From Patescibacteria group bacterium (lineage in GTDB: Bacteria > Patescibacteriota > Patescibacteriia > UBA9934 > GWF2-40-263): a DNA stretch of 64,000 bases. Made by a program: the position numbers and the translations under genes. The stretch is from the NCBI GenBank assembly GCA_004297215.1, contig SCUM01000001.1, positions 353,181-417,180 of the forward strand, written 5' to 3'. Of the stretch, positions 5,874 to 57,862 are shown one piece after another (the stretch's first letter is position 1; every line of letters begins with the position of its first letter). The notes beneath the pieces were generated by a model. The model made no database searches, was not told where the DNA came from, and worked only from the letters and a program-made list of their open reading frames with translations.

Positions 5874-7361
5874 TTATCTAAGCTTCTTCGTGACGTTGAA
5901 CCCGAGATAGGAGCCCAGCAGGAACCGCGTCTGCGCGTCGATCGCCGGCAGGGCGCCGAACAGGATGAAGGTGACGGGGAGCAGCAGCCACTGCGCCACC
6001 ATGAGCAGCCACGCCCATCCCTTCACCGATGCCGGGCGCGGCGGGAGCAGCGTGAGCGACAGGATCCCGGACACGAACACGCCGGCCATGGCGAGCTGCA
6101 TGATGTGCTGGAGCGTGAACGGGGCGGCCTGGATGAGCGCGTCCGGGTCGCGCACGAGCGCGAGCGGGAGCTGGCCGAACAGGAAGATGAGCAACGGCGC
6201 CGTGGCCCAGGTGTACATCCCTTCCAGGTGGTTGAACAGGTACCGCGCCTTCTTCATGAGCGGGATCCCTGGCGCGGCGCCAAACGCCGCGACCATCGCG
6301 GGAAGATGCTCCACCCCCCATGCCCAACGCCGCTGCTGCTTGTAGAGCGCCTTGAGCGCAGCCACGTACGTCTCCCCGGAAACGGCGTCCATGGACACGG
6401 GGAGGTACAGGGGCGTGACGCGATAGTCGCCGCGGTAATGCACGAACGCCTGCAGGAAGATGCGGCTGTCCTCCGAGACGATGTCCTTCTGCCAGAACCG
6501 GACGTCCTTGAGCATCTTCCACGGCATGGAGTGGCTGGAGAAGGTCCACAGCCGCTCGGGGCGCGCGAGCTCGCCCATGAGCCAGAAGGTGGTGCCGAAC
6601 GCGGCGATGCGCACCGGCGCCGGCGCGGTCCAGATGGTGTTGGAAAACAGCACTACCGGCTGGTAGCTGCAGCGCAGGGGGTCCTCGACGGTGAGATACG
6701 TGCGCGCGAGGTACGAGAAGTACTGCGGATGCACCACCGTGTCCACGTCGAACGCCGAAACGATCAGGTCCTCGTCCTTCAGGGTCGGGAACTCGGCGGT
6801 GAGGACCTCATCCGCGCGGTGTCCGGCCCAGTTGAGGTTGGATCCCTTCCCCGGGATCTCGTCCGGCAGCCCGGCGGGATGTTCCGTGACGATCAGCTTC
6901 TTGAAGCGGTGACCGAACTCGCGCTCGATCGCGGCGGCGTTCTTGCGGAACCGATGCGCGTCGCGCTCTTCGCCGGCAAGCACCACGATCATGCGCTCGT
7001 GCGGCACGTGGGCGGACAGGAGCGATCGCAGCGTGGCGCGGATGACCGACAGTTCTTCCTTGTACGTGGGGAGGAACACCAGGTGGTGGATGCGTTCATG
7101 CCCCGGGATCTCCCGCACCCGCGCGGCCCAGTCCACCTTCGAGGCGCGGCGCACTTCCACCCAGGCGATCACCAGGAAGATGATGAAATACGCCACGCGG
7201 AAGAACCAGTACAGGTCGAACACGATGATGAACACCACCACGTACACCGGGGCGAAGAACGACAAGGCGAGTCCAAGGATGAGCGTCCCCCACACGAGCG
7301 CCCCCGGAAGCATCTCCCAAAAGCGCATGCGGCCGTACTTATAGCCGTAAAAGCCGTCCAT
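5874..7361 (-). CDS. Membrane-embedded processive family 2 beta-glycosyltransferase (cellulose/chitin-synthase-like, QxxRW motif)
   Basis: 495 aa with N-terminal TM helices, a GT2 core (FDVDTVVHP) and the processive-GT signature YKQQRRWAWGVEH, followed by C-terminal TM helices. Confidence 0.8.
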   Translation of the reverse strand: MDGFYGYKYGRMRFWEMLPGALVWGTLILGLALSFFAPVYVVVFIIVFDLYWFFRVAYFIIFLVIAWVEVRRASKVDWAARVREIPGHERIHHLVFLPTYKEELSVIRATLRSLLSAHVPHERMIVVLAGEERDAHRFRKNAAAIEREFGHRFKKLIVTEHPAGLPDEIPGKGSNLNWAGHRADEVLTAEFPTLKDEDLIVSAFDVDTVVHPQYFSYLARTYLTVEDPLRCSYQPVVLFSNTIWTAPAPVRIAAFGTTFWLMGELARPERLWTFSSHSMPWKMLKDVRFWQKDIVSEDSRIFLQAFVHYRGDYRVTPLYLPVSMDAVSGETYVAALKALYKQQRRWAWGVEHLPAMVAAFGAAPGIPLMKKARYLFNHLEGMYTWATAPLLIFLFGQLPLALVRDPDALIQAAPFTLQHIMQLAMAGVFVSGILSLTLLPPRPASVKGWAWLLMVAQWLLLPVTFILFGALPAIDAQTRFLLGSYLGFNVTKKLR

Positions 7362-7373
7362 AATCGAAAGAAT

Positions 7374-7412
7374 CCTAACAAAAAACCGCCCTTGAGTCTA
7401 GGGCGGTCTTCG
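7374..7412 (-). terminator. Rho-independent terminator downstream of the 7420-8310 gene
   Basis: The minus strand reads ggcgaagaccgccctagactcaagggcggttttttt: a 7-bp GC stem followed by a U-run. Confidence 0.6.
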
Positions 7413-7419
7413 CCATATC

Positions 7420-8310
7420 CTACTCTATTTCCTTCCATTCCTTCTCACGCTCCTTCATGCTTTTTTCCAACTTCTTACGGACATCCTGAATCGTCATCGG
7501 CGTATGCGCCTGCTTCCCCCGATAATCGACCCAGAGTTCCCCATTGCCGACATCGAGGTGCGAGCTTTCGACAAAATCCCTATACGTTCCACCAAGCTCA
7601 TTGATGCTCTCGACGTTTATAGACTTACCCATTGCCATAAGCGTCAGCCAGTCACTGAAATAATTGTGACTCACGGAAACTAGGTGGGTAGGTCTGTCCG
7701 GAAAGTGTTTTTTTGAAAGCTGATCCATGCGTTCAACATAATCCACAGCTAGGAAAGCGTATTCTTCCGGCGTTTGGATGAATTCGGCTGGATTAATCGT
7801 CGAAGGATCTATGTCTGGATGTGTACGTCTAAGTTCCTCCTTGAGCGCGGGGATTTCTTCCTTCCTTGCGGTCCAAATCTTTCCTACGATGGACTCATCT
7901 TTGTAGAGGCTGCGCCATTTTTGAAAAGCTGAGTCAGCCAGATCCTCCTTCCTGAGACTGTATCCGAGCATGGTTTGCGGAGCCGTCTCCGTGATGAGAA
8001 GTTTCTTGTCAGTTCTGGTTTTAGCTTCATCAATTTTCTCAGCATCCTTCACGGATACAGCTTCGAAGTCGCCATCTTGTGAAACCAGGTCGAGTAAACT
8101 TGATTCCAAGGTCCGCTTTGTATCAATTGCACGGCCGATGTTTGAAGAAAAAAGCACAATGACAGCAGGAGCAGGAATCTCCTTTAGACGTTCGTAAAGC
8201 TCATGCGCCTTTTTCTTGGCCTGTTCAATCCCCTGTTCGGATAATCCTTCCCCCTTCTTGTGTCCGTGACGCATGATCTCGAACTGTGTGCCCGACCGTC
8301 GTTCCGTCAT
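7420..8310 (-). CDS. Histidine phosphatase superfamily protein (phosphoglycerate-mutase-like branch), paralog 1
   Basis: The N-terminus FEIMRHGHKKGEGLSEQGIEQAKK matches the RHG catalytic motif plus the LTEKGREQA-type segment, and a second His motif is present (LVSVSHNYFSDWL). The start was set to MTERR (ATG at 8308-8310), which forms an ATGA overlap with the stop of the 8307-9521 gene. It lies in the lower-GC island. Confidence 0.6.
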   Translation of the reverse strand: MTERRSGTQFEIMRHGHKKGEGLSEQGIEQAKKKAHELYERLKEIPAPAVIVLFSSNIGRAIDTKRTLESSLLDLVSQDGDFEAVSVKDAEKIDEAKTRTDKKLLITETAPQTMLGYSLRKEDLADSAFQKWRSLYKDESIVGKIWTARKEEIPALKEELRRTHPDIDPSTINPAEFIQTPEEYAFLAVDYVERMDQLSKKHFPDRPTHLVSVSHNYFSDWLTLMAMGKSINVESINELGGTYRDFVESSHLDVGNGELWVDYRGKQAHTPMTIQDVRKKLEKSMKEREKEWKEIE

Positions 8311-9521
8311 AGATGAGAGGTATATTTGGCAGCCCGTTTTAAGACCGTAATCTTGCCGTTGGTGGCATCGAGCTCGATCAGGTCCCCATCGCGGATGATA
8401 TCCGTCGCGTGATGGGTGGCTACGAGACACGGTACGCCAAGTTCACGAGACATGATGGCGGCATGCGAATTCAATCCGCCCTGGTTCGCGATGATTCCAC
8501 CGGCCTTTTTCATGAGCGGAACGAACTCGGGCGAAGTCGTCTCCGTGACCAGGATGGTTCCCTGCGGCATTTCCATCAGGTGTACGCTCTTTACGAAATC
8601 CTCATAACTCTTCCCGTATTCCGGCAAGATGACACGGGCGCGCGCTGTCACTTTTCCACGGTTCGCGATCGTCCCGCCGCATTCCGTCATGTTCGAATAA
8701 TCAGGTTCTGCGAAACGCCCGAGAACTAATTTCTTGTCGATACCATCCAATTCGTACCCGCGTCCGTTCTCGGAATAAATCAGGTACGAATGCTGACGTG
8801 CCCTGATGATGGTATCAGGCGCCAGAGTACCTTGTTCTAACAGGCGAATGAGCTGCTTAATGCTGTAAAATTTCACGTCTTCCACGTTCGTCCCATGTTG
8901 TGCGGCGGCCAAATCCGCATAATGGTAGAGGCAGGTGGTGAGCAATTCGACAAGTAAAGGGCGGCTCTTCATCTTGAGGTCGTCACCCAAGACCAACATG
9001 TTTTTCTCCAACAAGGCGTCGGTATTTTCGAAACAGCCATCTGTGAAGAAAAATTCGGTCTTTTCAAAGTAGTAATACAGCTTCTGGACAATCGCCTTGA
9101 GGTCGCAGACGTCATTGATGGTAACGACGGTCTTTTGACGGGACGTCTTGAGATAGGATTCGCTTTCAGCGATGACTTCTCGGAATCCTTTCTCAAAACG
9201 AACAAAATTTTCCTCTTGTGAAAAGATAGCCCGGCCGATCTTCATGGTCTCCGCCGCGATGGAACGTGGGATGTACGAGCGCAACAGGTCATTTTCATAC
9301 ATCCACAAGAAGCCCCGGTCGAAGTAATGCTGCGCGGAAAAATCTATAAGAAGATAACCCAACCCCTTGAAGTTAAAGGCACGGATATAGTCTTTCGGCG
9401 TAATTTTCTCCAATTGATACATAGGCATGATCATTAGCATGTAGCCTATCAAAAACATCGACACGAGGCTAGATTTTCCCTGAAAAATTAAGATGGGTTC
9501 TGTAACTACTGCAAAAACCAT
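8307..9521 (-). CDS. PEP-utilizing-enzyme mobile (phosphohistidine swivel) domain protein with a novel N-terminal region, paralog A
   Basis: The C-terminus GGIIANQGGLNSHAAIMSRELGVPCLVATHHATDIIRDGDLIELDATNGKITVLKRA is the PEP-utilizers His domain (GGxxSHAAIxAREL). The roughly 300-aa N-terminal region has no domain I can recognise. GC is about 48%. Confidence 0.7.
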   Translation of the reverse strand: MVFAVVTEPILIFQGKSSLVSMFLIGYMLMIMPMYQLEKITPKDYIRAFNFKGLGYLLIDFSAQHYFDRGFLWMYENDLLRSYIPRSIAAETMKIGRAIFSQEENFVRFEKGFREVIAESESYLKTSRQKTVVTINDVCDLKAIVQKLYYYFEKTEFFFTDGCFENTDALLEKNMLVLGDDLKMKSRPLLVELLTTCLYHYADLAAAQHGTNVEDVKFYSIKQLIRLLEQGTLAPDTIIRARQHSYLIYSENGRGYELDGIDKKLVLGRFAEPDYSNMTECGGTIANRGKVTARARVILPEYGKSYEDFVKSVHLMEMPQGTILVTETTSPEFVPLMKKAGGIIANQGGLNSHAAIMSRELGVPCLVATHHATDIIRDGDLIELDATNGKITVLKRAAKYTSHL

Positions 9522-12275: not shown

Positions 12276-13223
12276 TCACGACCCGCTTAGCGTCGTGATC
12301 GGCCGGCTTTGGACGATGTAAAACGTCCCGCCCTCCATGGCCCATTCGATGTCGCACGGGAAACCGTAATGTGCCTCGATGCGCTGGCAGATTCCGCCGA
12401 TGTCGCGGATCTGATCGGGAGAGATCTTTTGCGCGTTTTTCTTTTCCGCTGGCACGGGGATCTTCTCATTCCCGCCGGTCGAGCGCACCATCATGAGTTC
12501 CTGCTCGGACACGTTCACGTCGATGAGCGACTTGTCGGTCTTGTCGACGACGTACGAATCCGGCGTCACCTGCCCGCCCACGATCATCTCCCCCAGGCCC
12601 CAAGCCGCCTCGATGATCATCTGGTTGCGGTCCTCCGTCACGGGGTGGACCGTGAAGGTGATGCCGGACACCTCGGACTGCACCATCTTCTGCACCACGA
12701 CGGCCACCGACACGTGCGTGTCCACCATCCCCTTTTCGTTGCGGTACACGATGGCGCGTGGGGTGAACAATGATGCCCAGCAGCGCTTCACGTTCACGAG
12801 CAGCGTCTCGTGCGTCGTGTTGAGGTAGCTCTCCAGCTCCCCGGCCCAGCTGGCGACGGAAGAGTCTTCGGCTGTGGCGGACGAACGGACCGCGACGAAC
12901 TCGGCACCGAGCGCGGCGAACGACGCCTCGATTTCTTTCCCGAGGTCCTCGGGAAACTTCGCGTCATGAATGAGGTCATGCAGCACGCGCGACGCACGGT
13001 CTACGGAAGCCACGTCCTCGTAGTTCACCTTGGCGAGCTGCGCCTTCACTTCCTGGGTCAGGTCCGTCTCCTCAAGAAACCGATCGAACGATTCCGCGAC
13101 GACGACAAATCCCGGCGGCACCGGGATGCCGGCTTTCGTCATCTCCCCAAGCGACGCCCCCTTGCCTCCCGCTTCGCCGACATTTTCCTTTCCGAGCTGT
13201 TCGAACGGTTTCACGAAAGGCAT
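12276..13223 (-). CDS. Stand-alone PPDK_N-type ATP-grasp nucleotide-binding domain protein (PEP synthase / pyruvate phosphate dikinase N-terminal domain)
   Basis: MPFVKPFEQLGKENVGEAGGKGASLGEMTKAGIPVPPGFVV...AVRSSATAEDSSVASWAGELESY...DIEWAMEGGTFYIVQSRPITTL. It ends where full-length PEP synthases continue into the central/His domains. Confidence 0.8.
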   Translation of the reverse strand: MPFVKPFEQLGKENVGEAGGKGASLGEMTKAGIPVPPGFVVVAESFDRFLEETDLTQEVKAQLAKVNYEDVASVDRASRVLHDLIHDAKFPEDLGKEIEASFAALGAEFVAVRSSATAEDSSVASWAGELESYLNTTHETLLVNVKRCWASLFTPRAIVYRNEKGMVDTHVSVAVVVQKMVQSEVSGITFTVHPVTEDRNQMIIEAAWGLGEMIVGGQVTPDSYVVDKTDKSLIDVNVSEQELMMVRSTGGNEKIPVPAEKKNAQKISPDQIRDIGGICQRIEAHYGFPCDIEWAMEGGTFYIVQSRPITTLSGS

Positions 13224-13227
13224 ATGA

Positions 13228-14670
13228 TCAGGCTCGTTTCAAGATTGTCACGATTCCCTTCTCCGCGTCCACCTCTACCTCATCGCCGTCCTTGAGCACC
13301 TTGGTCGCGATCTTCGTGCCGATGATGCAGGGTATTTTCAACTCCCGCGATAAGATTGCCGCATGGCAGGTGATGCCGCCTTCGTTGGTGACGATAGCGA
13401 CGCACTTACGGAGAAACTGCATGAAATCCGGCGAGGTCATGGAGATTGCCAGGACGAACGGCTCATCGGGTACTGCCTCCTTCGGATGCGCAACGACCCG
13501 CACGATTCCCCTTGCCTTCCCCCTGAACGCGACCTGTCCACGCACTTGATCATGTTTTCCCTCATCGGTTCTAACAGCATCGAAAATTTTTTTTGCGTTT
13601 TCACCGACCACGTAACTGCCCTTTTTCCCGTTTTCCCAATACACGAGCAAGCCACCGTCTCGCCTTGCACCAAGCAGGTCCTTGTACGTCTTGTCCTGCA
13701 GTTTCGCCAGCGTCAGTTCGCCAGCATACGAATATTTCAACGCGTCGTGGCTGACATCAAATTTTTCCGCCAACCCGCCTAGCGCCCAGTCGATTAACGC
13801 GAACAGCCGCTGTTCGTAAGCCATGCGCTCGTCGCGGTTGTACTGACAATACCCAAAGAGCGAGAAAATGTTCCGTTCCTGCGTGTTTGCGCCGAGCTTT
13901 TTCAAGATGGCCTGTTTGGCCTTCGCCAATACCTTCTGTTCCTTCGGGTTGAATTTCTGTGCAGCTTCGGCATCCCTCAGCACGTCCTCAGCCGAGTACT
14001 CGACGTACCCGTTGAAATTCGACTTGGCATACGCGAACGCGCGTGCCAACCGCTCGGCGGCCTTCCTTTTGTTGACGGCCCGGCGTATTTTTTTCGAAAT
14101 AACGATTTGCCGTTTTACCGTTTCGGAAATTTCCGAACTATGGAAAAGGGTTGAAAAATGTGCCTGCCGTTGATCCAGCGGGACACGCTTCTGCTCCAAC
14201 CACCAGTTCGTCCAGTCGGTCGCCATGTCCCCGATCATGGCTGCCAATGGCGAAACCGCCCAAATGTCTTCCAACACCCGCTGGCACTCGTGAACCAATT
14301 CGACCAATTGCTCTCCAGACAGCATGGAGAAGGCTTTGCCGCCGTATCGATGCCACAAGCGATCGGATTGCGCTTTGACCTTGTCCCAACGCCGAAGATA
14401 CATTCTGAAGTTTTTTCCCGACAAGAAATAATCCAGTACGGAATATCCGAACATGCGGACGTTCAGTTTGATGAAGGATGTCTCTCCCTGGTATAGCCAA
14501 TATCCATCCGCGAACAGGAGGGAAAAGCGGTAGTAACGCTCGATGTGCTGATCGGCCCATACCTTCATGTAAGGATCCAGAAACGCTGGCGTCCCCGGCC
14601 TCTGAGCGACGAGCCATGTCTTGGATTCGGGCAAAGGCGGATGCGGATAGGAAAATCGTACGGGATTCAT
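13228..14670 (-). CDS. PEP-synthase/rifampin-phosphotransferase-like protein with a roughly 390-aa central domain and a phosphohistidine swivel domain but no ATP-grasp domain, paralog C
   Basis: C-terminus ...VRGQVAFRGKARGIVRVVAHPKEAVPDEPFVLAISMTSPDFMQFLRKCVAIVTNEGGITCHAAILSRELKIPCIIGTKIATKVLKDGDEVEVDAEKGIVTILKRA. Its 3-prime roughly 170 nt are about 80% identical at DNA level to the 3-prime end of 11227-12243. Confidence 0.7.
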   Translation of the reverse strand: MNPVRFSYPHPPLPESKTWLVAQRPGTPAFLDPYMKVWADQHIERYYRFSLLFADGYWLYQGETSFIKLNVRMFGYSVLDYFLSGKNFRMYLRRWDKVKAQSDRLWHRYGGKAFSMLSGEQLVELVHECQRVLEDIWAVSPLAAMIGDMATDWTNWWLEQKRVPLDQRQAHFSTLFHSSEISETVKRQIVISKKIRRAVNKRKAAERLARAFAYAKSNFNGYVEYSAEDVLRDAEAAQKFNPKEQKVLAKAKQAILKKLGANTQERNIFSLFGYCQYNRDERMAYEQRLFALIDWALGGLAEKFDVSHDALKYSYAGELTLAKLQDKTYKDLLGARRDGGLLVYWENGKKGSYVVGENAKKIFDAVRTDEGKHDQVRGQVAFRGKARGIVRVVAHPKEAVPDEPFVLAISMTSPDFMQFLRKCVAIVTNEGGITCHAAILSRELKIPCIIGTKIATKVLKDGDEVEVDAEKGIVTILKRA

Positions 14671-15443
14671 ACACGCATATTCGCCTCTACGAGAGAGAGC
14701 GGGGCCGGTATTTCGTCCTCTCTGTCGTAATGCGTGCGGCCATTGAGCGCCACATCAAGCGCAACTAAGCTCGACATGTGGCCTACGCCGTAAAAGAAGA
14801 TGGGGAGTCCCTCATTCGCGTGCACGACCTCTTTTAATTTCAGCACCTCCTCACGCAACTGCGCTGCCCTCTTCTTCAAGATTGAGTCCTCACGAGCAAG
14901 ATCCTGATTGACCGCAGTAAAAAATAATTCCATCTCCCGTGCATGGCCTTTTCCTCCTCCCGCACTCGAGATATATTGGCTCAACTCCTTATCGTCTTCC
15001 TGGTCTTGCTGCGCGATCCGCTGCATGAGTTGCAACATGCCTGGAGCTTCTTTGGGCATGTCGGACGTTCCCGTCGTCCGGATTCCCATATCCGTCGTCG
15101 ACTCCCCTATCGTGTCCGTATAAATCTGCTTGGTCCCGCTTTCACGGATATGGTCTTCCAATGATTCTAGGATATATTCCGCTGTGAAACGCGTACGCGG
15201 ATAGTTCGTGGTCGAAAAAATCACGAGCGCGCGTTCGGGAAGCGATGAAAAAATATCTTGTGCAAGTGTTTCCATCTTCTCGAGACTGCGATAGGTAACC
15301 TCTGGATCAGAAATGTGCAGACGCTCGCAGATTTCCTTCCATCTCGCCTGCTGTTTGCCTGTTAAGCCGGACGCCTCAACGGTTGACCGTTCCTCCCCGG
15401 CTTTCATCTTTTCCCCGTGCCTGATAAGTGAGAATCTTTCCAT
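14667..15443 (-). CDS. Histidine phosphatase superfamily protein, paralog 2
   Basis: MERFSLIRHGEKMKAGEE...LTGKQQARWKEICERL is the RHG catalytic motif, and a second His motif is present (FFYGVGHMSSLVAL). Its stop forms an ATGA overlap with the start of the 13228-14670 gene. Confidence 0.65.
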   Translation of the reverse strand: MERFSLIRHGEKMKAGEERSTVEASGLTGKQQARWKEICERLHISDPEVTYRSLEKMETLAQDIFSSLPERALVIFSTTNYPRTRFTAEYILESLEDHIRESGTKQIYTDTIGESTTDMGIRTTGTSDMPKEAPGMLQLMQRIAQQDQEDDKELSQYISSAGGGKGHAREMELFFTAVNQDLAREDSILKKRAAQLREEVLKLKEVVHANEGLPIFFYGVGHMSSLVALDVALNGRTHYDREDEIPAPLSLVEANMRV

Positions 15444-32035: not shown

Positions 32036-32332
32036 CTAGGCGGTTGCGAACACGGACACGTCCCGCTCGATCCGTTTCGCGACGGCATCCTGCACGCAAT
32101 CAAGGTCATAGTGCATTTGCAGGTTCAGCCAGAACTGCGGGGTGGTGCCGAAATAACGCGCGAGACGCAGGGCGGTGTCGGAAGAAACGGACCGTGTCCC
32201 GTGAATGATCTCGTTAATCCGCCGTGCGGGAACCGCGATGTCCTTTGCAAGCCGGTACTGGGTCAGCTTATGCGGACGCAGGAACTCATGGTCCAAAATC
32301 TCGCCTGGATGAACGGGTTTTTGTTTTGCCAT
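32036..32332 (-). CDS. higA: HigA family antitoxin (XRE-type HTH)
   Basis: MAKQKPVHPGEILDHEFLRPHKLTQYRLAKDIAVPARRINEIIHGTRSVSSDTALRLARYFGTTPQFWLNLQMHYDL is the canonical HigA sequence. Confidence 0.85.
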   Translation of the reverse strand: MAKQKPVHPGEILDHEFLRPHKLTQYRLAKDIAVPARRINEIIHGTRSVSSDTALRLARYFGTTPQFWLNLQMHYDLDCVQDAVAKRIERDVSVFATA

Positions 32333-32333
32333 A

Positions 32334-32615
32334 TCAGTGATAATCGATAATTTCTACGTCATGCGCGTATCCGTCCTGCCACCGAAAGCATATGCGCCAC
32401 TGGTCATTTATCCGGATGCTGTAACGATGCAACCGATCATGAAGGAGTTTCTCAAGACGATTCCCAGGCGGCACGACAAGGTCGGCTAATGCGCGTGCCG
32501 CATGGATCATCCTAAGTTTATAGAGAGCCGTCCGCTGAATGTCCGAAGGGATTTTTCTGGACCATTCTCTCTGGAACAGACGCGCGGTCTCCTTATCGGC
32601 GAAGCTCAGAATCAT
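32334..32615 (-). CDS. higB: HigB toxin (RelE/ParE superfamily plasmid-maintenance killer protein)
   Basis: MILSFADKETARLFQREWSRKIPSDIQRTALYKLRMIHAARALADLVVPPGNRLEKLLHDRLHRYSIRINDQWRICFRWQDGYAHDVEIIDYH. Confidence 0.85.
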   Translation of the reverse strand: MILSFADKETARLFQREWSRKIPSDIQRTALYKLRMIHAARALADLVVPPGNRLEKLLHDRLHRYSIRINDQWRICFRWQDGYAHDVEIIDYH

Positions 32616-32823: not shown

Positions 32824-32871
32824 GCCTGCCTGCCGGCAGGCAGGGATGCCACCGGCCTCTGCGGCCGGTGG
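32824..32871. other. Two tandem perfect GC-rich hairpins in the higB-lexA divergent spacer
   Basis: cctgcctgcc|ggcaggcagg is a 10-bp stem with no loop. gccaccggcc tctgc ggccggtggc is a 10-bp stem with a 5-nt loop. Confidence 0.6.
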
Positions 32872-32913
32872 CACTTATCCACAGTCCCCTCTTTTTCTGC
32901 CAATCTACGACCC

Positions 32914-33006: not shown

Positions 33007-33624
33007 ATGCCACCTCTCACGAAAAAACAGGCAGAAATCCTTGCTCACATCCGATCCCATATCGCGGAGCACGGGTACGCTCCAAGCTACCGCGAGATCG
33101 CCGAGAACTTTGGCCTCTCCTCCCCTGCCACGGTGCACCAGCATGTGAAGTCGCTCGCCGAGAAAGGGATGATCGAGGTGGGAGATGAGGGCGAAGCGCG
33201 CTCCATCGAACTCGTCGACACCGGCGAGAGCGCCTTGCTCGCGCTCGAGCTCCCGCTGGTCGGCCTCATCACCGCCGGGTCTCCCATCGAGGCGATAGAA
33301 GAGCGCGAAACCATGGCCGTGCCCGCGCAGTTCGTCCTCGACGGCGCAAACTCGTACGTGCTCAAGGTGAAAGGACGGTCGATGATCGACGACGGCATCC
33401 ACGACGGGGACTTCGTCGTGATCGAACGCAATCCAAGTCCAAGAAACGGCGAGGTCGTCGTCGCCCTCCTCGACAACGCGTATGCGACGCTCAAACGGTT
33501 TTATCGCGAGACCAACCGCATCCGCCTCCAACCCGCGAACAGCACCATGGATCCCATCTACGTCAAAGACTGCATCATCCAAGGCGTCGTGCGCGCCGTG
33601 ATCCGCAAGTTCCAGCCGGCGTAG
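33007..33624 (+). CDS. lexA: LexA repressor
   Basis: MPPLTKKQAEILAHIRSHIAEHGYAPSYREIAENFGLSSPATVHQHVKSLAEKGMIE...VKGRSMIDDGIHDGDFVVIE...RLQPANSTMDPI has the Ser/Lys dyad context intact. Confidence 0.95.
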   Translation: MPPLTKKQAEILAHIRSHIAEHGYAPSYREIAENFGLSSPATVHQHVKSLAEKGMIEVGDEGEARSIELVDTGESALLALELPLVGLITAGSPIEAIEERETMAVPAQFVLDGANSYVLKVKGRSMIDDGIHDGDFVVIERNPSPRNGEVVVALLDNAYATLKRFYRETNRIRLQPANSTMDPIYVKDCIIQGVVRAVIRKFQPA

Positions 33625-45066: not shown

Positions 45067-45143
45067 TGGTGGAGCCGACGGGATTCGAACCCGTAATGCC
45101 AGGTGTCAACCCTAGTGAGGTTGCCAATTACCTCCACGGCCCC
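45067..45143 (-). tRNA. tRNA with an encoded CCA; isotype unresolved
   Basis: The minus strand reads GGGGCCG TG GAGG TAATTGGCAA CCTC A CTAGG GTTGACA CCTGG CATT ACGGG TTCGAAT CCCGT CGGCTCC A CCA, a perfect cloverleaf. By canonical numbering the anticodon is UGA, but the 4-nt variable loop and C37 do not fit tRNA-Ser. tRNAscan-SE is needed to decide. Confidence 0.75.
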
Positions 45144-54799: not shown

Positions 54800-55885
54800 A
54801 TGGACCTCCTCAAGGAGCTCGACCAGGTGAAAAAACGCGTGGCGGACCTCGAAACCCGATTGGCCGATCCGGGCGTGCTTTCCGATCCCAAGAAACTCCG
54901 CGAGGCCGGCATCGAGTACCAGGAAGCGAAAGACCTGCTTGAGATCGGGGAACGCTATGCGCAGGCCGCCTCGGGGCTCGCGTCCGCAAAGGACATGCTT
55001 CGCGACTCGACCGACCCGGAGATGCGCGCCTTGGCCCAAACGGAAATCGAGGAACTTGCGGGAAAACTCCCGAAGCTCGAGGAGGCGTTCACCCTCGCCC
55101 TGCTCCCTCCCGATCCGCTCGATAAGAAAAACAGCATCGTGGAAATCCGCGCTGGCACGGGCGGCGACGAGGCCGCGATCTTCGCGGGCGAACTGTTGCG
55201 CGCCTATTCGCTGTTCGCCGAACGCCAGGGCTGGAAGGTGTCGCCGGTCACCATGAGCCGCGGCGAGGCGGGCGGGTTCAAGGAAGCGATCGTGGAGATC
55301 GAGGGGAAGAACGTCTACAGCAAGCTCAAGTTCGAATCCGGCGTGCATCGCGTGCAGCGCGTGCCGGAGACGGAAAAGGCCGGACGCGTGCACACCTCGA
55401 CCGCGACGGTGGCGGTCATGCCCGAAGCCGAGGAGATCGACGTACGCCTCGACCCGAAGGACCTGAAAATCGAAGCGAGCACCAGCCAAGGCGCGGGCGG
55501 CCAGAGCGTGAACACCACCTACTCCGCCATCCGCATCGTGCATCTTCCCACGGGCATCGTCGTGCAATGCCAGGACGAACGCAGCCAGGCGCAAAACCGC
55601 TTGCGAGCCATGCAGATCCTGCGCGCCCGCGTGTTCGCGCACGAGCAGGAAAAGGCGGCCAAGGAACGCTCCGCCGCGCGCAAGTCGCAGATCGGCTCCG
55701 GCGACCGCTCGGAAAAGATCCGCACGTACAATTTTCCCCAGGACCGCGTCACCGACCACCGCATCGGGGAAAACTTCCACGACATCCCCGGCATCATGAA
55801 CGGCAATCTCGCCCCGATCTTGGACGCGTTGAACGCGGCGGAATTGAAGGAGAGATTCGAGGCGTTAGCAGAGAAAGAAGCTTGA
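54800..55885 (+). CDS. prfA: Peptide chain release factor 1
   Basis: Has the PET tripeptide at the RF1 codon-recognition position ([13 protein letters not shown]) and the GGQ motif ([12 protein letters not shown]). Confidence 0.95.
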
Positions 55886-55899
55886 AAAGCGAAAGGAGT

Positions 55900-56900
55900 G
55901 CGTAAGAAAGAGGGTTATCCACAGAAATGTGGGTAACGCCCCTTGACGCGTCGTTTAGGGAACGATAAGCTGCTTCTCACGTTGATGAGGCAGAAACGAA
56001 CCGACGACGTCCGTCAGGACGACCGAACGGGCGAAAAGCCTACGCAGCGTGCAAAGTGAGATGACGTCGCTCGAATCGAATGAAGGCCCCGCGAGGGAGA
56101 CCGACAGGAGAAAAGAGCGAGGATCAGGAATCTTCTGAATCATTGATGGGAATCTCTGGTGGTCCTCCGTGACTTACTGGAACCCTCCCATCAGTGCCAT
56201 CAGCCTCCCCGCCGTGAAACAGCGGAATAACCTGGCGCATGTGCATGCGTCTGGTCCAGGAGGAGCGCCGGCTCATCGAGTCGGAACCGGTCCCATTCCG
56301 GAAGGTGGAAAGCAGAAGAAGGTTTGCGGGGTAGCTGGGGAGGAGAAAGACCTCCATGCGAGCCGCAATTCAAGTCGTCGGACATGGAAGCCCGCAATTG
56401 CGCGGTTTCACCTAGAGGACGCTAATAACGTCCGCATAGGTCGCGAATGTCGGAGGGTCGCAAGACCCTAGGGATCAAGAGGCGATTCATCGCTACTTCC
56501 CTTCACTGATGACGCTCGGTGCAGCGATCCTGCACGACAAGTCATGTTTGACACCCTGCCATGGATCGCAAGATCACCAACATGGCTAGGTCCGAACGTC
56601 TTTGAACATGCCGATCCGGAGCCGAACGAGAGTAACATCTCCAGTAGGAAGGTGAGGTGGCTGGTGCTCTCGGGTGCCAGGAAAGACGTCGGGAACGTTC
56701 CCGATCGATATCGAACCGGCGCGTCAGGCATCTGGCGCGTGACATTCGACACGGTGGGTCCCGTTGGGATGTAGGAAGTAGGAAGAGCGCGTGCGCTCGG
56801 ACGAAACTACGTCTCGCGGGCCACCCGTGAAGGATTGCGAGTTGGTCAACTCCAGCGAGCACCTGAGGCCCTAGCGAAAGCGAAGGCCTCTTGAATTTTC
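55900..56900 (+). ncRNA. ORF-free lower-GC insert of about 1 kb between prfA and prmC, ending in a hairpin plus U-tract; candidate large structured RNA or ORF-less inserted element
   Basis: No ORF longer than 106 aa on either strand, and GC is about 10 points below the flanks. The 3-prime end has gaggcc...ggcctc followed by ttgaattttcatttcc, consistent with a + strand transcript. The 8-nt direct repeat agcgaaag occurs at both ends (55888-55895 and 56873-56880). Confidence 0.3.
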
Positions 56901-56935
56901 ATTTCCGAACGTTCGCGCTAGGGTACCATGCGCCT

Positions 56936-57862
56936 ATGACGGTATTCGAGGCCCTGCAATGGGCCAGCGGCAAACTCAAGCCCCATGCGGAATCGGCCAT
57001 GCTCGACGCTGAGGTGCTGCTTGGGCATGCCTTAGGGCTTCCAAAGGCATGGGTGTTCTCGCATTTCGAGTACGAGCTGAAGCCGTACGAGGCCGACAGG
57101 TTCGCATCGTCCGTCGCGCGGCGCATGAAGCGCGAGCCGGTGGCGCACATCATCGGCCAAAAGGAATTCTACGGCCGCAAGTTCCGCGTCACTCCCGCGA
57201 CCCTTATCCCTCGACCAGAAACGGAGCTGCTCGTCGAGCACGCGCTCAGGGCGAGCTACCCCTCTCCTTTAGAAGGAGAGGGCATGGGTGAGGTCTCGCG
57301 AGACAAGGACATGGGTGACGTGCTCTTCGCCGACATCGGGACCGGCAGCGGCGCCATTGCCATTTCCCTTGCCGCCGAATCCGGATTTCCGGCCGTCGCA
57401 ACGGACGTGAGTCGCGAAGCCCTGGCTGTCGCGAAGAGCAATGCCGAAGCGCTCGGCGTTTCCGACAAGGTGGATTTCCGGCTCGGAAATCTCCTGGAAC
57501 CGGTCACGGCCATCTTCAAGAAACTCGGAGACGCGTCGCCGGTAACGCACCTTGTCATCTGTGCCAACCTGCCGTACCTCACCGCGGAACAGGTCGCCTG
57601 CACGGACGCCGACGTAAAAGACTTCGAGCCGCATTCCGCCCTCGTCGCGGGCGAAGACGGCCTGTCCTGTTACTGGCAATTGTTCCGTCAGCTAAAGCAG
57701 AACCGCGGCCTGTTCCCCGCCCGCGTCACGGCCCTCATCGAGATCGACCCGTCGCAGCGCGACAAGGCCGTCGCCCTCATCACGCACGACTTCCCCGCCG
57801 CCAAGCCTGAAGTCCTGAAAGACCTTGCCGGCCTCGATCGGGTCATCTTCGCCGACCTATGA
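56936..57862 (+). CDS. prmC: Release factor glutamine methyltransferase PrmC/HemK
   Basis: ...LIPRPETELLVEHAL...DIGTGSGAIAISLA...VICANLPYL. It has NLPY instead of the canonical NPPY, and a 24-aa insertion (ASYPSPLEGEGMGEVSRDKDMGDV) between the N-domain and motif I. Confidence 0.85.
   Translation: MTVFEALQWASGKLKPHAESAMLDAEVLLGHALGLPKAWVFSHFEYELKPYEADRFASSVARRMKREPVAHIIGQKEFYGRKFRVTPATLIPRPETELLVEHALRASYPSPLEGEGMGEVSRDKDMGDVLFADIGTGSGAIAISLAAESGFPAVATDVSREALAVAKSNAEALGVSDKVDFRLGNLLEPVTAIFKKLGDASPVTHLVICANLPYLTAEQVACTDADVKDFEPHSALVAGEDGLSCYWQLFRQLKQNRGLFPARVTALIEIDPSQRDKAVALITHDFPAAKPEVLKDLAGLDRVIFADL

Follow-up and report, generated by a model that had tools for sequence, protein, structure and literature searches.

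The genes prfA, for release factor 1, and prmC, for the release factor glutamine methyltransferase, flank a gap of about one kilobase in a Patescibacteria group bacterium (assembly GCA_004297215.1), and this gap is the subject of the present analysis. The stretch of DNA analyzed, hereafter called the window, comprises 64,000 nucleotides (nt) of contig SCUM01000001.1 (positions 353,181–417,180), and the RNA predicted from its prfA–prmC gap is called the window RNA. An initial annotation, made from the sequence alone, had described the gap as an insert of lower GC content that could be a large structured noncoding RNA (ncRNA), an intron-like or mobile element, or a completely decayed gene. Below we describe the anatomy of the gap, its counterparts in related genomes and the reasons why we favor a gene for a large structured RNA.

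Results

The gap between prfA and prmC carries no coding signal

From the end of prfA to the ATG codon of prmC the gap measures exactly 1050 nt (55886–56935). It is the only stretch of at least 1 kb in the window that is free of open reading frames (ORFs), since three other apparent gaps on a map of ORFs with a high GC content at the third codon position hold real low-GC genes, namely those for PEP-utiliser and PPDK-like proteins and a HigB/HigA pair. The largest ORFs within the gap are 106 amino acids (aa) on the − strand and 100 aa on the + strand. The GC content by codon phase is flat (0.58/0.57/0.55, versus 0.66/0.41/0.83 in prfA), and the six-frame translation of the gap gave no match at E ≤ 1 against 5.8 billion proteins and no Pfam family at E ≤ 1. 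The ORF list, the phase GC and the protein searches thus agree with the initial annotation, which had found no credible ORF in the 1050-nt spacer, the longest being the one of 106 aa. Its estimate of a drop in GC to about 55% was also close to the measured value of 57%, as compared to 62–67% in the flanks. The + strand of the gap is rich in purines.

Putative signals at the two ends of the gap

At the head of the gap, two DnaA boxes form an inverted pair 4 nt apart, the second of which ends 6 nt before the −35 hexamer of a putative promoter (Table 1). Two related loci, L081 (Logan SRR22387798) and L083 (JGI 3300067034), which represent the RNA type here called group 1, have the same signals. 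The 17-nt spacer between the hexamers is not conserved among the window, L081 and L083, whereas both hexamers are invariant; L081 and L083 have identical boxes and hexamers, with loop and spacer sequences that differ. Constant boxes and hexamers combined with a varying loop and spacer are what would be expected for a promoter with an operator.

Just one further perfect DnaA box occurs in the window (TTATCCACA, 32875–32883); it follows directly after a GC-rich hairpin (32849–32883, box included), about 130 nt upstream of an ORF starting at 33007. A metagenome scan for a DnaA-box pair followed by CTTGAC returned 45 loci, all of them unrelated and none with prfA, prmC or rpmE. In these JGI contigs (L084–L128), many of which are marine and low in GC, the inverted box pair abuts a CTTGAC −35 element, and examples of what lies downstream include an rpmH-like gene (L108), a recF-like gene (L093) and a conserved ORF starting MFKKSTSTSRIC. 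The architecture of a box pair next to a −35 element therefore seems to be widespread.

At the opposite end of the gap there is a terminator-like hairpin, in which 56865–56870 pairs with 56885–56890. The block from 56855 to 56935 aligns with the terminator and prmC-promoter block of L081 (z 5.4, 0/300 shuffles), and the related RNAs all end in a hairpin and a T-run, 35–60 nt before prmC. Between the hairpin and prmC lies a −10-like motif, the counterparts of which read TGCTAGGTT in L081, TGCTAGCTT in L083, TGCTAAGAT in group 2 (a second RNA type, see below), TGATACACT in L138 and TGATACGTT in L137. In these relatives, the extended −10-like motif, of the type TGCTAnnnT (TGnTAnnnT), is always located 9–11 nt before the ATG codon of prmC; its TG has been lost in the window. 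A −10-like motif at a fixed distance, with no Shine-Dalgarno sequence, suggests that prmC is expressed from a separate leaderless mRNA in the window and in L081, L083 and L129–L138. This conserved motif is in line with the initial proposal that transcription would terminate before prmC, which would then need a promoter of its own.

Table 1. Genes and predicted elements of the prfA–prmC locus (positions are those of the window).
Feature	Position	Strand	Basis or remark
prfA (release factor 1)	54800..55885	+	Upstream neighbor, stop codon ends at 55885; ORF list; 47–66% identity to prfA of 80 genomes
DnaA box 1, TTATCCACA, perfect consensus	55915..55923	+	Same box at the same place in L081 (884) and L083 (8814)
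DnaA box 2, TGTGGGTAA on the + strand = TTACCCACA, 1 mismatch	55928..55936	−	Motif match
Putative −35 hexamer TTGACG	55943..55948	+	Read from the sequence; TTGAC invariant in the window, L081 and L083
Putative −10 hexamer TAAGCT	55966..55971	+	17 nt after −35; identical in L081 and L083
Conserved 5′ segment including UGAUGAG (55983–55989)	55972..56023	+	Last stretch alignable with the group-1 RNAs of L081 and L083
Predicted RNA, ~926 nt	55979..56904	+	From a conserved A 8 nt after −10 (predicted start, ±4 nt) to the end of the T-rich tail
RNA interior, ~840 nt	56024..56860	+	No detectable relative found
Terminator-like hairpin GAGGCC-CUAGCGAAAGCGAA-GGCCUC, then UUGAAUUUUCAUUU	56865..56890, T-rich tail 56891..56904	+	Sequence and comparison
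Putative prmC promoter, CGC-TAGGGT, CGCTAGGGT	56916..56924	+	11 nt before ATG; no Shine-Dalgarno
prmC (release factor glutamine methyltransferase)	56936..57862	+	Downstream neighbor; N-terminus MTVFEALQW as in relatives; 79–80% identity to P0001 (L081)

The predicted RNA has a strand-specific excess of folding stability

Folding stability was expressed as the z-score of the minimum free energy (MFE) relative to dinucleotide shuffles. For the segment 55972–56905, the MFE of the + strand was −391.7 kcal/mol, the shuffles had −345 ± 8 kcal/mol and the z-score was −5.6 to −6.3, whereas the − strand scored −2.2 to −2.4 and six coding windows of the same length, used as controls, −1.7 to +1.6. The interior alone (56024–56860, + strand) had a z-score of −4.5. 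The + strand contained 4 GNRA loops among 14 tetraloops, versus 0.7 in shuffles, as compared to 0/6 on the − strand and 0–2 GNRA loops in the coding controls. The segment thus displays, on its + strand, a strand-specific folding stability beyond that of dinucleotide shuffles. The group-1 RNAs behave similarly on the + strand, with z-scores of −8.2 (L081) and −10.1 (L083), and with GNRA sequences in 9/19 and 11/17 of their tetraloops. The strand-specific fold, the enrichment for GNRA loops and the conservation of the putative promoter in relatives all speak for the candidate large structured ncRNA that had initially been placed on the + strand.

A family of loci in Uhrbacteria-like genomes

The best matches to both prfA and prmC were from Candidatus Uhrbacteria and other Patescibacteria, and Logan SRR8426588 contains a prmC with 100% identity to that of the window. 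Within this clade the two genes are separated, whereas the gap is 3–300 nt outside it, among the relatives that were fetched from beyond the candidate phyla radiation (CPR). The initial annotation was thus right in that prfA and prmC are normally adjacent, but not in that an insert would have split the pair in this lineage: the separation is ancestral in Uhrbacteria-like genomes, for which the idea of an insert is misleading.

Twelve related loci (L081, L083, L001, L002, L003, L129, L130, L132, L133/L134, L137 and L138) have an ORF-free stretch of 0.43–1.6 kb immediately before prmC and in the same orientation as this gene; the upstream region is missing from the contigs of P0002, P0014 and P0059. 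The shared unit consists of one or more DnaA boxes (in 11 of the 12 loci), a −35/−10 promoter, the ORF-free stretch, an intrinsic terminator and the TGCTAnnnT motif before prmC. The window has all of these parts, namely an ORF-free and co-oriented stretch, a DnaA box, a promoter, a terminator and a prmC −10 motif. Judged by its predicted signals, it is the local member of a family of Uhrbacteria-like loci with the order DnaA box, promoter, large RNA, terminator and prmC.

The wider genomic context is rpmE–prfA–(NTP_transferase)–RNA–prmC, in which the NTP_transferase gene is usual for the clade and absent from the window, which resembles L002 in this respect. This gene is followed by an ORF-free stretch of 1351 nt in L081 (prmC 80% identical to that of the window), 1191 nt in L083 (61%) and 500–840 nt in L001, L129–L135, L137 and L138 (approximately 53–56%). 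No NTP_transferase gene is present in L002 and L003, where the ORF-free DNA follows directly after prfA and spans about 0.8 kb and 2.2 kb, respectively. In the window, the gene was either lost or never present; a tblastn search of the gap with the slot proteins of the relatives, aimed at a decayed NTP_transferase, yielded no match with an E-value below 0.04.

A DnaA box with at most one mismatch is located within about 50 nt upstream of the −35 element in 11 of the 12 RNA-bearing loci, against a background of approximately one box per 4–8 kb, and 13 relatives that lack the RNA have no such box at the corresponding position. The distance from box to −35 differs by RNA type (6, 27 or about 40 nt). 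Outside the window and group 1, the putative promoters read TTGAC, then 16–17 nt, then a −10 hexamer TATAGT, TATTAT, TAAATT or TAATCT. In group-2 loci, the DnaA box (TGTGGATAA; L129 914–922, L130 1472–1480, L133 5342–5350) coincides with the last two codons and the TAA stop codon of the NTP_transferase gene. The distance from this box to the −35 element of the RNA farther downstream is always 27 nt, and this −35 element is itself situated in the loop of the NTP_transferase terminator hairpin.

The RNAs of the slot fall into five or six mutually unalignable types: those of the window, L002, L003, group 1, group 2 with the divergent L138, and L137. The consensus structure of group 2 is weak (−37 kcal/mol, with a positive covariation term), and no claim is based on it. 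The best reading of these patterns is that the locus family is new and that its RNA types, which do not align with each other, turn over fast.

L003 (7062–9241) carries two RNA-like units in tandem, with no Rfam match. The first is short and C-rich with a promoter and a terminator of its own (~7095–7310), and its 3′ end resembles the group-2 RNAs. The second comprises DnaA boxes at 7362 and 7388, a promoter and an RNA of about 1.6 kb that is rich in purines and contains ~45-nt internal repeats (near 8300 and 8575). In L004 (~7080–7712), the slot holds a coiled-coil-like ORF of 149 aa between direct repeats of about 100 nt, which looks like a separate insertion event.

The window RNA shares its ends with the group-1 RNAs

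Judging by the identity of prmC, the window is the sister of L081 (80%), and L083 falls outside this pair (61–63%). Between the RNAs of L081 and L083, the identity amounts to 80% over 1320 columns and reaches 89% in a domain of 363 columns, whereas their PrmC proteins are only 63% identical. The variation between the two RNAs is concentrated in hairpins that have been swapped, extended or deleted as whole units. Both partners have changed in as many as 30 of the 289 predicted base pairs, and no pair has been disrupted; controls in which the pairing was slid by 1–3 columns gave 0–4. Going by this pattern of compensatory change, the ancestral RNA of the slot, group 1, is a genuine structured RNA.

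The window and group 1 are alike in slot and strand, in the inverted DnaA-box pair, the −35 and −10 hexamers and the first ~45 transcribed nt including UGAUGAG, in a homologous block of terminator and prmC promoter, and also in GC content (57% vs. 57–60%), purine richness and fold z-score. The 112 nt at the 5′ end of the window unit (55912–56023, covering the boxes, the promoter and the first ~45 nt that would be transcribed) match the group-1 hidden Markov model with an E-value of 1e-6 and a pairwise z-score of 12.3, and at the 3′ end ~80 nt, comprising the terminator and the prmC promoter, can be aligned with L081 (z 5.4, as above). They are unlike in that the interior (56024–56860) has no similarity in sequence or by covariance model (CM) to L081 996–2150, in that the window RNA is 200–350 nt shorter and in that there is no NTP_transferase gene upstream of it. 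The best score of a CM built from a 118-nt three-way junction of group 1 was 6.7 bits in the window (E 0.24), which is not significant. Hence, the window RNA could not be assigned to the group-1 RNA type, with which only the 5′ 112 nt and the 3′ ~80 nt align.

Searches for known RNA classes, pseudogenes, mobile elements and origins

No Rfam 15 CM matched the window at gathering thresholds. At E ≤ 10, the region 55700–57100 gave three sub-threshold matches of 17–19 bits to unrelated small RNAs (sRNAs), which we regard as noise, and 19 related loci gave no matches at either gathering or permissive thresholds. The families covered include RNase P, tmRNA, signal recognition particle (SRP) RNA, 6S, group I and II introns, OLE, GOLLD, ROOL, HEARO, raiA, riboswitches and the hammerhead. 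The tmRNA could be rejected since ARAGORN detects only tRNA-Ser (45067–45143) in the window, and RNase P and SRP RNA since Rfam has no match to them even at E ≤ 10; the initial search by eye, which had found no convincing match to these three RNAs, is consistent with both programs. The same scan, which included ROOL, GOLLD, HEARO and OLE, placed the gap in no family. The hammerhead-like and box C/D-like readings of UGAUGAG were dropped because there is no stem II, no Rfam match and no conserved CUGA partner in L081 and L083.

An ORF-less group II intron was rejected because neither Intron_gpII nor group-II-D1D4 was matched at E ≤ 10, and the element is intergenic with its own putative promoter and terminator. 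With no Rfam intron match even at this threshold, the ORF-less intron of the initial annotation is not supported, and the same is true of its completely decayed gene. No frameshifted pseudogene was found over the gap in the six-frame search of 5.8 billion proteins, there was no Pfam match and no codon-position signal in GC, and the tblastn search was negative.

Nor is the gap a miniature inverted-repeat transposable element (MITE) or derived from an insertion sequence. No inverted match of at least 8 nt connects its head and tail, as terminal inverted repeats (TIRs) would, and its sequence has no second copy and no tandem or dispersed repeats within the window. The 8-nt repeat agcgaaag does bracket the region (55888–55895 and 56873–56880), as was initially reported. 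Its interpretation as a target-site duplication is not supported, because an equal match between head and tail is seen in 4.8% of shuffles and the second copy sits in the loop of the terminator; repeated 8-mers in the region number 12, versus 10.5 expected. Relatives share both ends of the unit, and the slot was already occupied in all close relatives, so that the proposed MITE-like insertion is not upheld. In phage and plasmid collections, there was no match to the gap except one chance match of 42 nt. In IMG/VR, a 20-mer from the interior had 0 matches and a motif from the 5′ end had 115 matches, which is at chance level and none of which was accompanied by the full module.

An origin of replication, oriC, was rejected because the region has only 2 DnaA boxes (≤2 mismatches) and neither a box cluster nor an AT-rich unwinding element, the maximum AT content of any 30 nt being 63%. 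No dnaA gene was found nearby, nor in the related loci of 13–15 kb. Starting at 0, the cumulative G–C skew of the window declines steadily until about 59.5 kb, where it begins to rise, and this minimum is located about 3 kb from the gap. This is a weak minimum, which may not mark an origin, with only 4.5 kb beyond it and no switch in gene orientation.

Other features of the window

A type II toxin–antitoxin pair is encoded on the − strand at 32036–32615, in a low-GC stretch that was first taken as ORF-free; it consists of a HigB-like toxin (32334–32615; PF05015, E 4e-20) and an HTH_3 antitoxin (32036–32332). Two low-GC islands on the − strand, 7420–9521 and 12276–15443, have a GC content of 50–58% as compared to ~64% in the genome and similar sets of genes, which code for PEP-utilisers mobile domain proteins (8307–9521; 13228–14670), a PPDK_N protein (12276–13223) and a histidine-phosphatase-like protein (7420–8430). 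These islands may be acquired or duplicated modules.

Discussion

A probable gene for a large structured RNA next to prmC

We favor, with moderate confidence, the hypothesis that the gap is an independent gene for a structured RNA of about 0.93 kb that acts in trans, with a promoter gated by DnaA and with termination before a leaderless prmC. The anatomy of the sequence, its conservation in relatives, the strand-specific excess of folding stability and the lack of a coding signal are directly visible in the data. In the mechanism that we propose, the inverted pair of DnaA boxes would abut a sigma-70-type promoter (TTGACG, 17 nt, TAAGCT), and since the boxes adjoin this promoter, occupancy by DnaA would probably gate its transcription. 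The transcript is predicted to fold into a multi-domain structure rich in GNRA-capped hairpins, and transcription would stop at the hairpin and U-tract about 45 nt before prmC. Expression of prmC itself would be driven by a separate −10 element and would probably yield a leaderless mRNA. Rather than being a leader of prmC, the RNA most likely works in trans, either as a folded scaffold or as a component of a ribonucleoprotein (RNP).

Several observations weigh against this hypothesis. We infer the transcription of the window RNA, the binding of DnaA, the action in trans and the function from the features above, and the support for the putative promoter and terminator is of a comparative nature. 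A simple promoter scan of 55700–57100 calls no sigma-70 site at the two hexamers because the −10 element fits the consensus at only 3/6 positions. The 3′ hairpin and T-rich run reported by the initial annotation are indeed present at 56865–56904, but the signal is weak: the T-run is interrupted, and a simple terminator scan of the same region misses the site on account of its 14-nt loop. One of the RNA-bearing loci, L137, has no DnaA box.

Other such observations concern the folding. Several hairpins of the gap are perfect DNA palindromes, which can fold on either strand. In L002, folding is equally good on both strands, with z-scores of −7.0 (+) and −8.1 (−) and GNRA fractions of 1/6 and 0/7, and the group-2 RNAs of L133 and L001 are C-rich with weak folds on the + strand (z −2.6 and −2.0; GNRA 2/7 and 2/8). 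In view of the weak group-2 scores and the strand symmetry of L002, a high degree of structure cannot be ascribed to all RNAs of the slot. The covariation in group 1 comes from two sequences only, and the structure was predicted from the same alignment.

A further objection concerns the interior of the window RNA. The Smith-Waterman scores of 56024–56860 against L081, L083, L133 and L001 are equal to those of shuffled sequences. No homologue of the interior was found by nhmmer with the --max option, and the blastn and nhmmer searches against all fetched loci matched only the 5′ module. With ends that can be aligned and an interior at the level of shuffled sequence, the unit has inherited its ends, and the body has either been replaced or has diverged beyond recognition. 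The body of the closest relative's RNA is unrelated to that of the window, and this copy could be a degenerating remnant.

Alternative explanations

According to the remnant explanation, a group-1 RNA lost its function in this genome, perhaps together with the NTP_transferase, and only the module of promoter and DnaA boxes and the terminator were kept. The retained ends would serve as an insulator or promoter for prmC or as a binding site for DnaA, and the interior would be drifting. Such a loss would account for an interior that cannot be aligned with that of L081 in spite of 80% identity in prmC, when L081 and the more distant L083 keep 80–89% identity in their RNAs. It would also fit with the missing NTP_transferase and with a terminator and a prmC −10 element that are the weakest of the set, the former with an interrupted T-run and the latter without its TG. 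However, the interior still has a fold z-score of −4.5, and there is an enrichment for GNRA loops and an asymmetry between the strands. The GC content of 57% and the purine richness resemble the group-1 RNAs (57–60%) and not the ~80% third-codon GC expected for drifting DNA, and 840 nt of junk would be unusual in an otherwise tightly packed genome. CPR genomes are tiny, with little room for non-functional DNA. All in all, we consider decay to be an unlikely explanation.

Somewhat less probable still is a giant leader that acts in cis, in which the DnaA-box promoter would read into prmC and the RNA and its terminator would serve as an attenuator. The arrangement invites such an interpretation, as the RNA immediately precedes prmC, in the same orientation, at every locus, with the terminator 35–60 nt before the ATG codon, and as the window terminator is weak. 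Yet, the extended −10-like motif at a fixed distance of 9–11 nt from the ATG codon, with no Shine-Dalgarno sequence, points to a separate leaderless transcript of prmC. Moreover, leaders of 0.43–1.6 kb with unrelated sequences would be unlike any known riboswitch or attenuator, and no cis-regulatory family in Rfam was matched.

We give little credence to the idea that the locus serves as a DnaA element at the level of the DNA, such as an origin or a titration or reactivation locus of the datA/DARS kind, with transcription being incidental or auxiliary. The pair of consensus DnaA boxes is conserved across lineages, and the minimum in cumulative skew is only about 3 kb away. Against this stand the low number of boxes (two, at ≤2 mismatches, and no cluster), the lack of an AT-rich element, of a nearby dnaA gene and of an orientation switch, and the mere 4.5 kb of sequence that back the skew minimum. 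A DNA element would also leave unexplained the ~900 nt of strand-specific RNA-like structure and the fact that the group-1 RNAs are 80–89% conserved and have compensatory pairs.

A frameshifted pseudogene or a mobile insertion that lacks ORFs and resembles a MITE or an intron, to which the 8-nt direct repeat near both ends and a GC content below that of the flanks might point, is largely refuted and hardly credible given a repeat at chance level with its second copy in the terminator loop, no TIRs of at least 8 nt, no second copy in the window, phages, plasmids or IMG/VR, no match to group I or II introns, HEARO or any other Rfam family, no protein similarity in any frame, no codon periodicity, and a slot and two unit ends that are common to relatives.

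Comparison with known systems

Large structured bacterial RNAs are rare, and each class (RNase P, tmRNA, group II introns, OLE, GOLLD, ROOL, raiA) has revealed new biochemistry or a new architecture. GOLLD and ROOL have unrelated sequences and similar contexts, which has a parallel here in the unrelated RNA types of one slot. Like OLE, GOLLD, ROOL and raiA, the favored RNA would be the noncoding product of a stand-alone gene, several hundred to more than 1000 nt long, with a promoter and a terminator of its own, a dense structure with many GNRA-capped hairpins and a conserved genomic context. Structures of such large “ornate” bacterial ncRNAs have been determined by cryo-electron microscopy (PMC12286853). 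Unlike those RNAs, the one proposed here belongs to a host from the CPR/Patescibacteria, is located in a housekeeping cluster for translation termination rather than in a prophage or tRNA neighborhood, and has DnaA boxes at its promoter. It is not a member of OLE, GOLLD, ROOL or raiA, because the CM tests failed for all of them in the window as well as in 19 related loci.

DnaA is described as a transcription factor at paired-box promoters in work on the regulons of Bacillus subtilis and Escherichia coli (PMC11317965; PMC2533591; PMC13438810), and the E. coli protein is reported to prefer pairs of sites that lie close together (PMC11317965). Promoters regulated by DnaA, including that for the autoregulation of dnaA, are similar to the one in the window in that one or two consensus 9-mers (TTATCCACA) are placed close together and immediately upstream of the −35 element, the pair in the window being 4 nt apart. 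They are dissimilar in that the putative target here is a large ncRNA and not a protein gene, and in that the spacing from box to −35 varies among the RNA types studied here. To our knowledge, no large ncRNA has been described as a product regulated by DnaA.

The CcnA RNA of Caulobacter is comparable in being an ncRNA with a promoter wired to regulators of replication and the cell cycle (PMC8959179). There is no homology between CcnA, a small sRNA from an alphaproteobacterium that acts by base pairing and is about 180 nt long, and the window RNA, and the two are entirely different in size and architecture.

Implications

A more far-reaching hypothesis, which we put forward only tentatively and consider doubtful as yet, is that the slot is an “RNA cassette,” that is, a locus gated by DnaA in which the signals are conserved and unrelated types of large RNAs, 0.43–1.6 kb in size, are exchanged or reinvented between close relatives. 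The products would constitute a new class of large structured RNAs, possibly RNA-only assemblies or RNPs, with their output tied to the state of replication initiation. If the slot is such a cassette, the turnover of its RNAs would be closer to the pattern of conflict and defense loci than to that of housekeeping RNAs.

A search of the literature returned no paper on large ncRNAs in Uhrbacteria or Patescibacteria, and we know of no class of large structured RNA that has been described from the CPR. The group-1 RNAs, which are 1.1–1.3 kb in size, 80–89% conserved and rich in GNRA loops, are ready candidates for structure determination. If the favored hypothesis is correct, the Uhrbacteria-like genomes would contain a new class of CPR RNAs and a conserved locus for RNAs of 0.4–1.6 kb. 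The consensus DnaA boxes would represent the first tie of a large ncRNA to the control of replication initiation, and the locus would provide a test case for the replacement of large RNAs under fixed expression signals.

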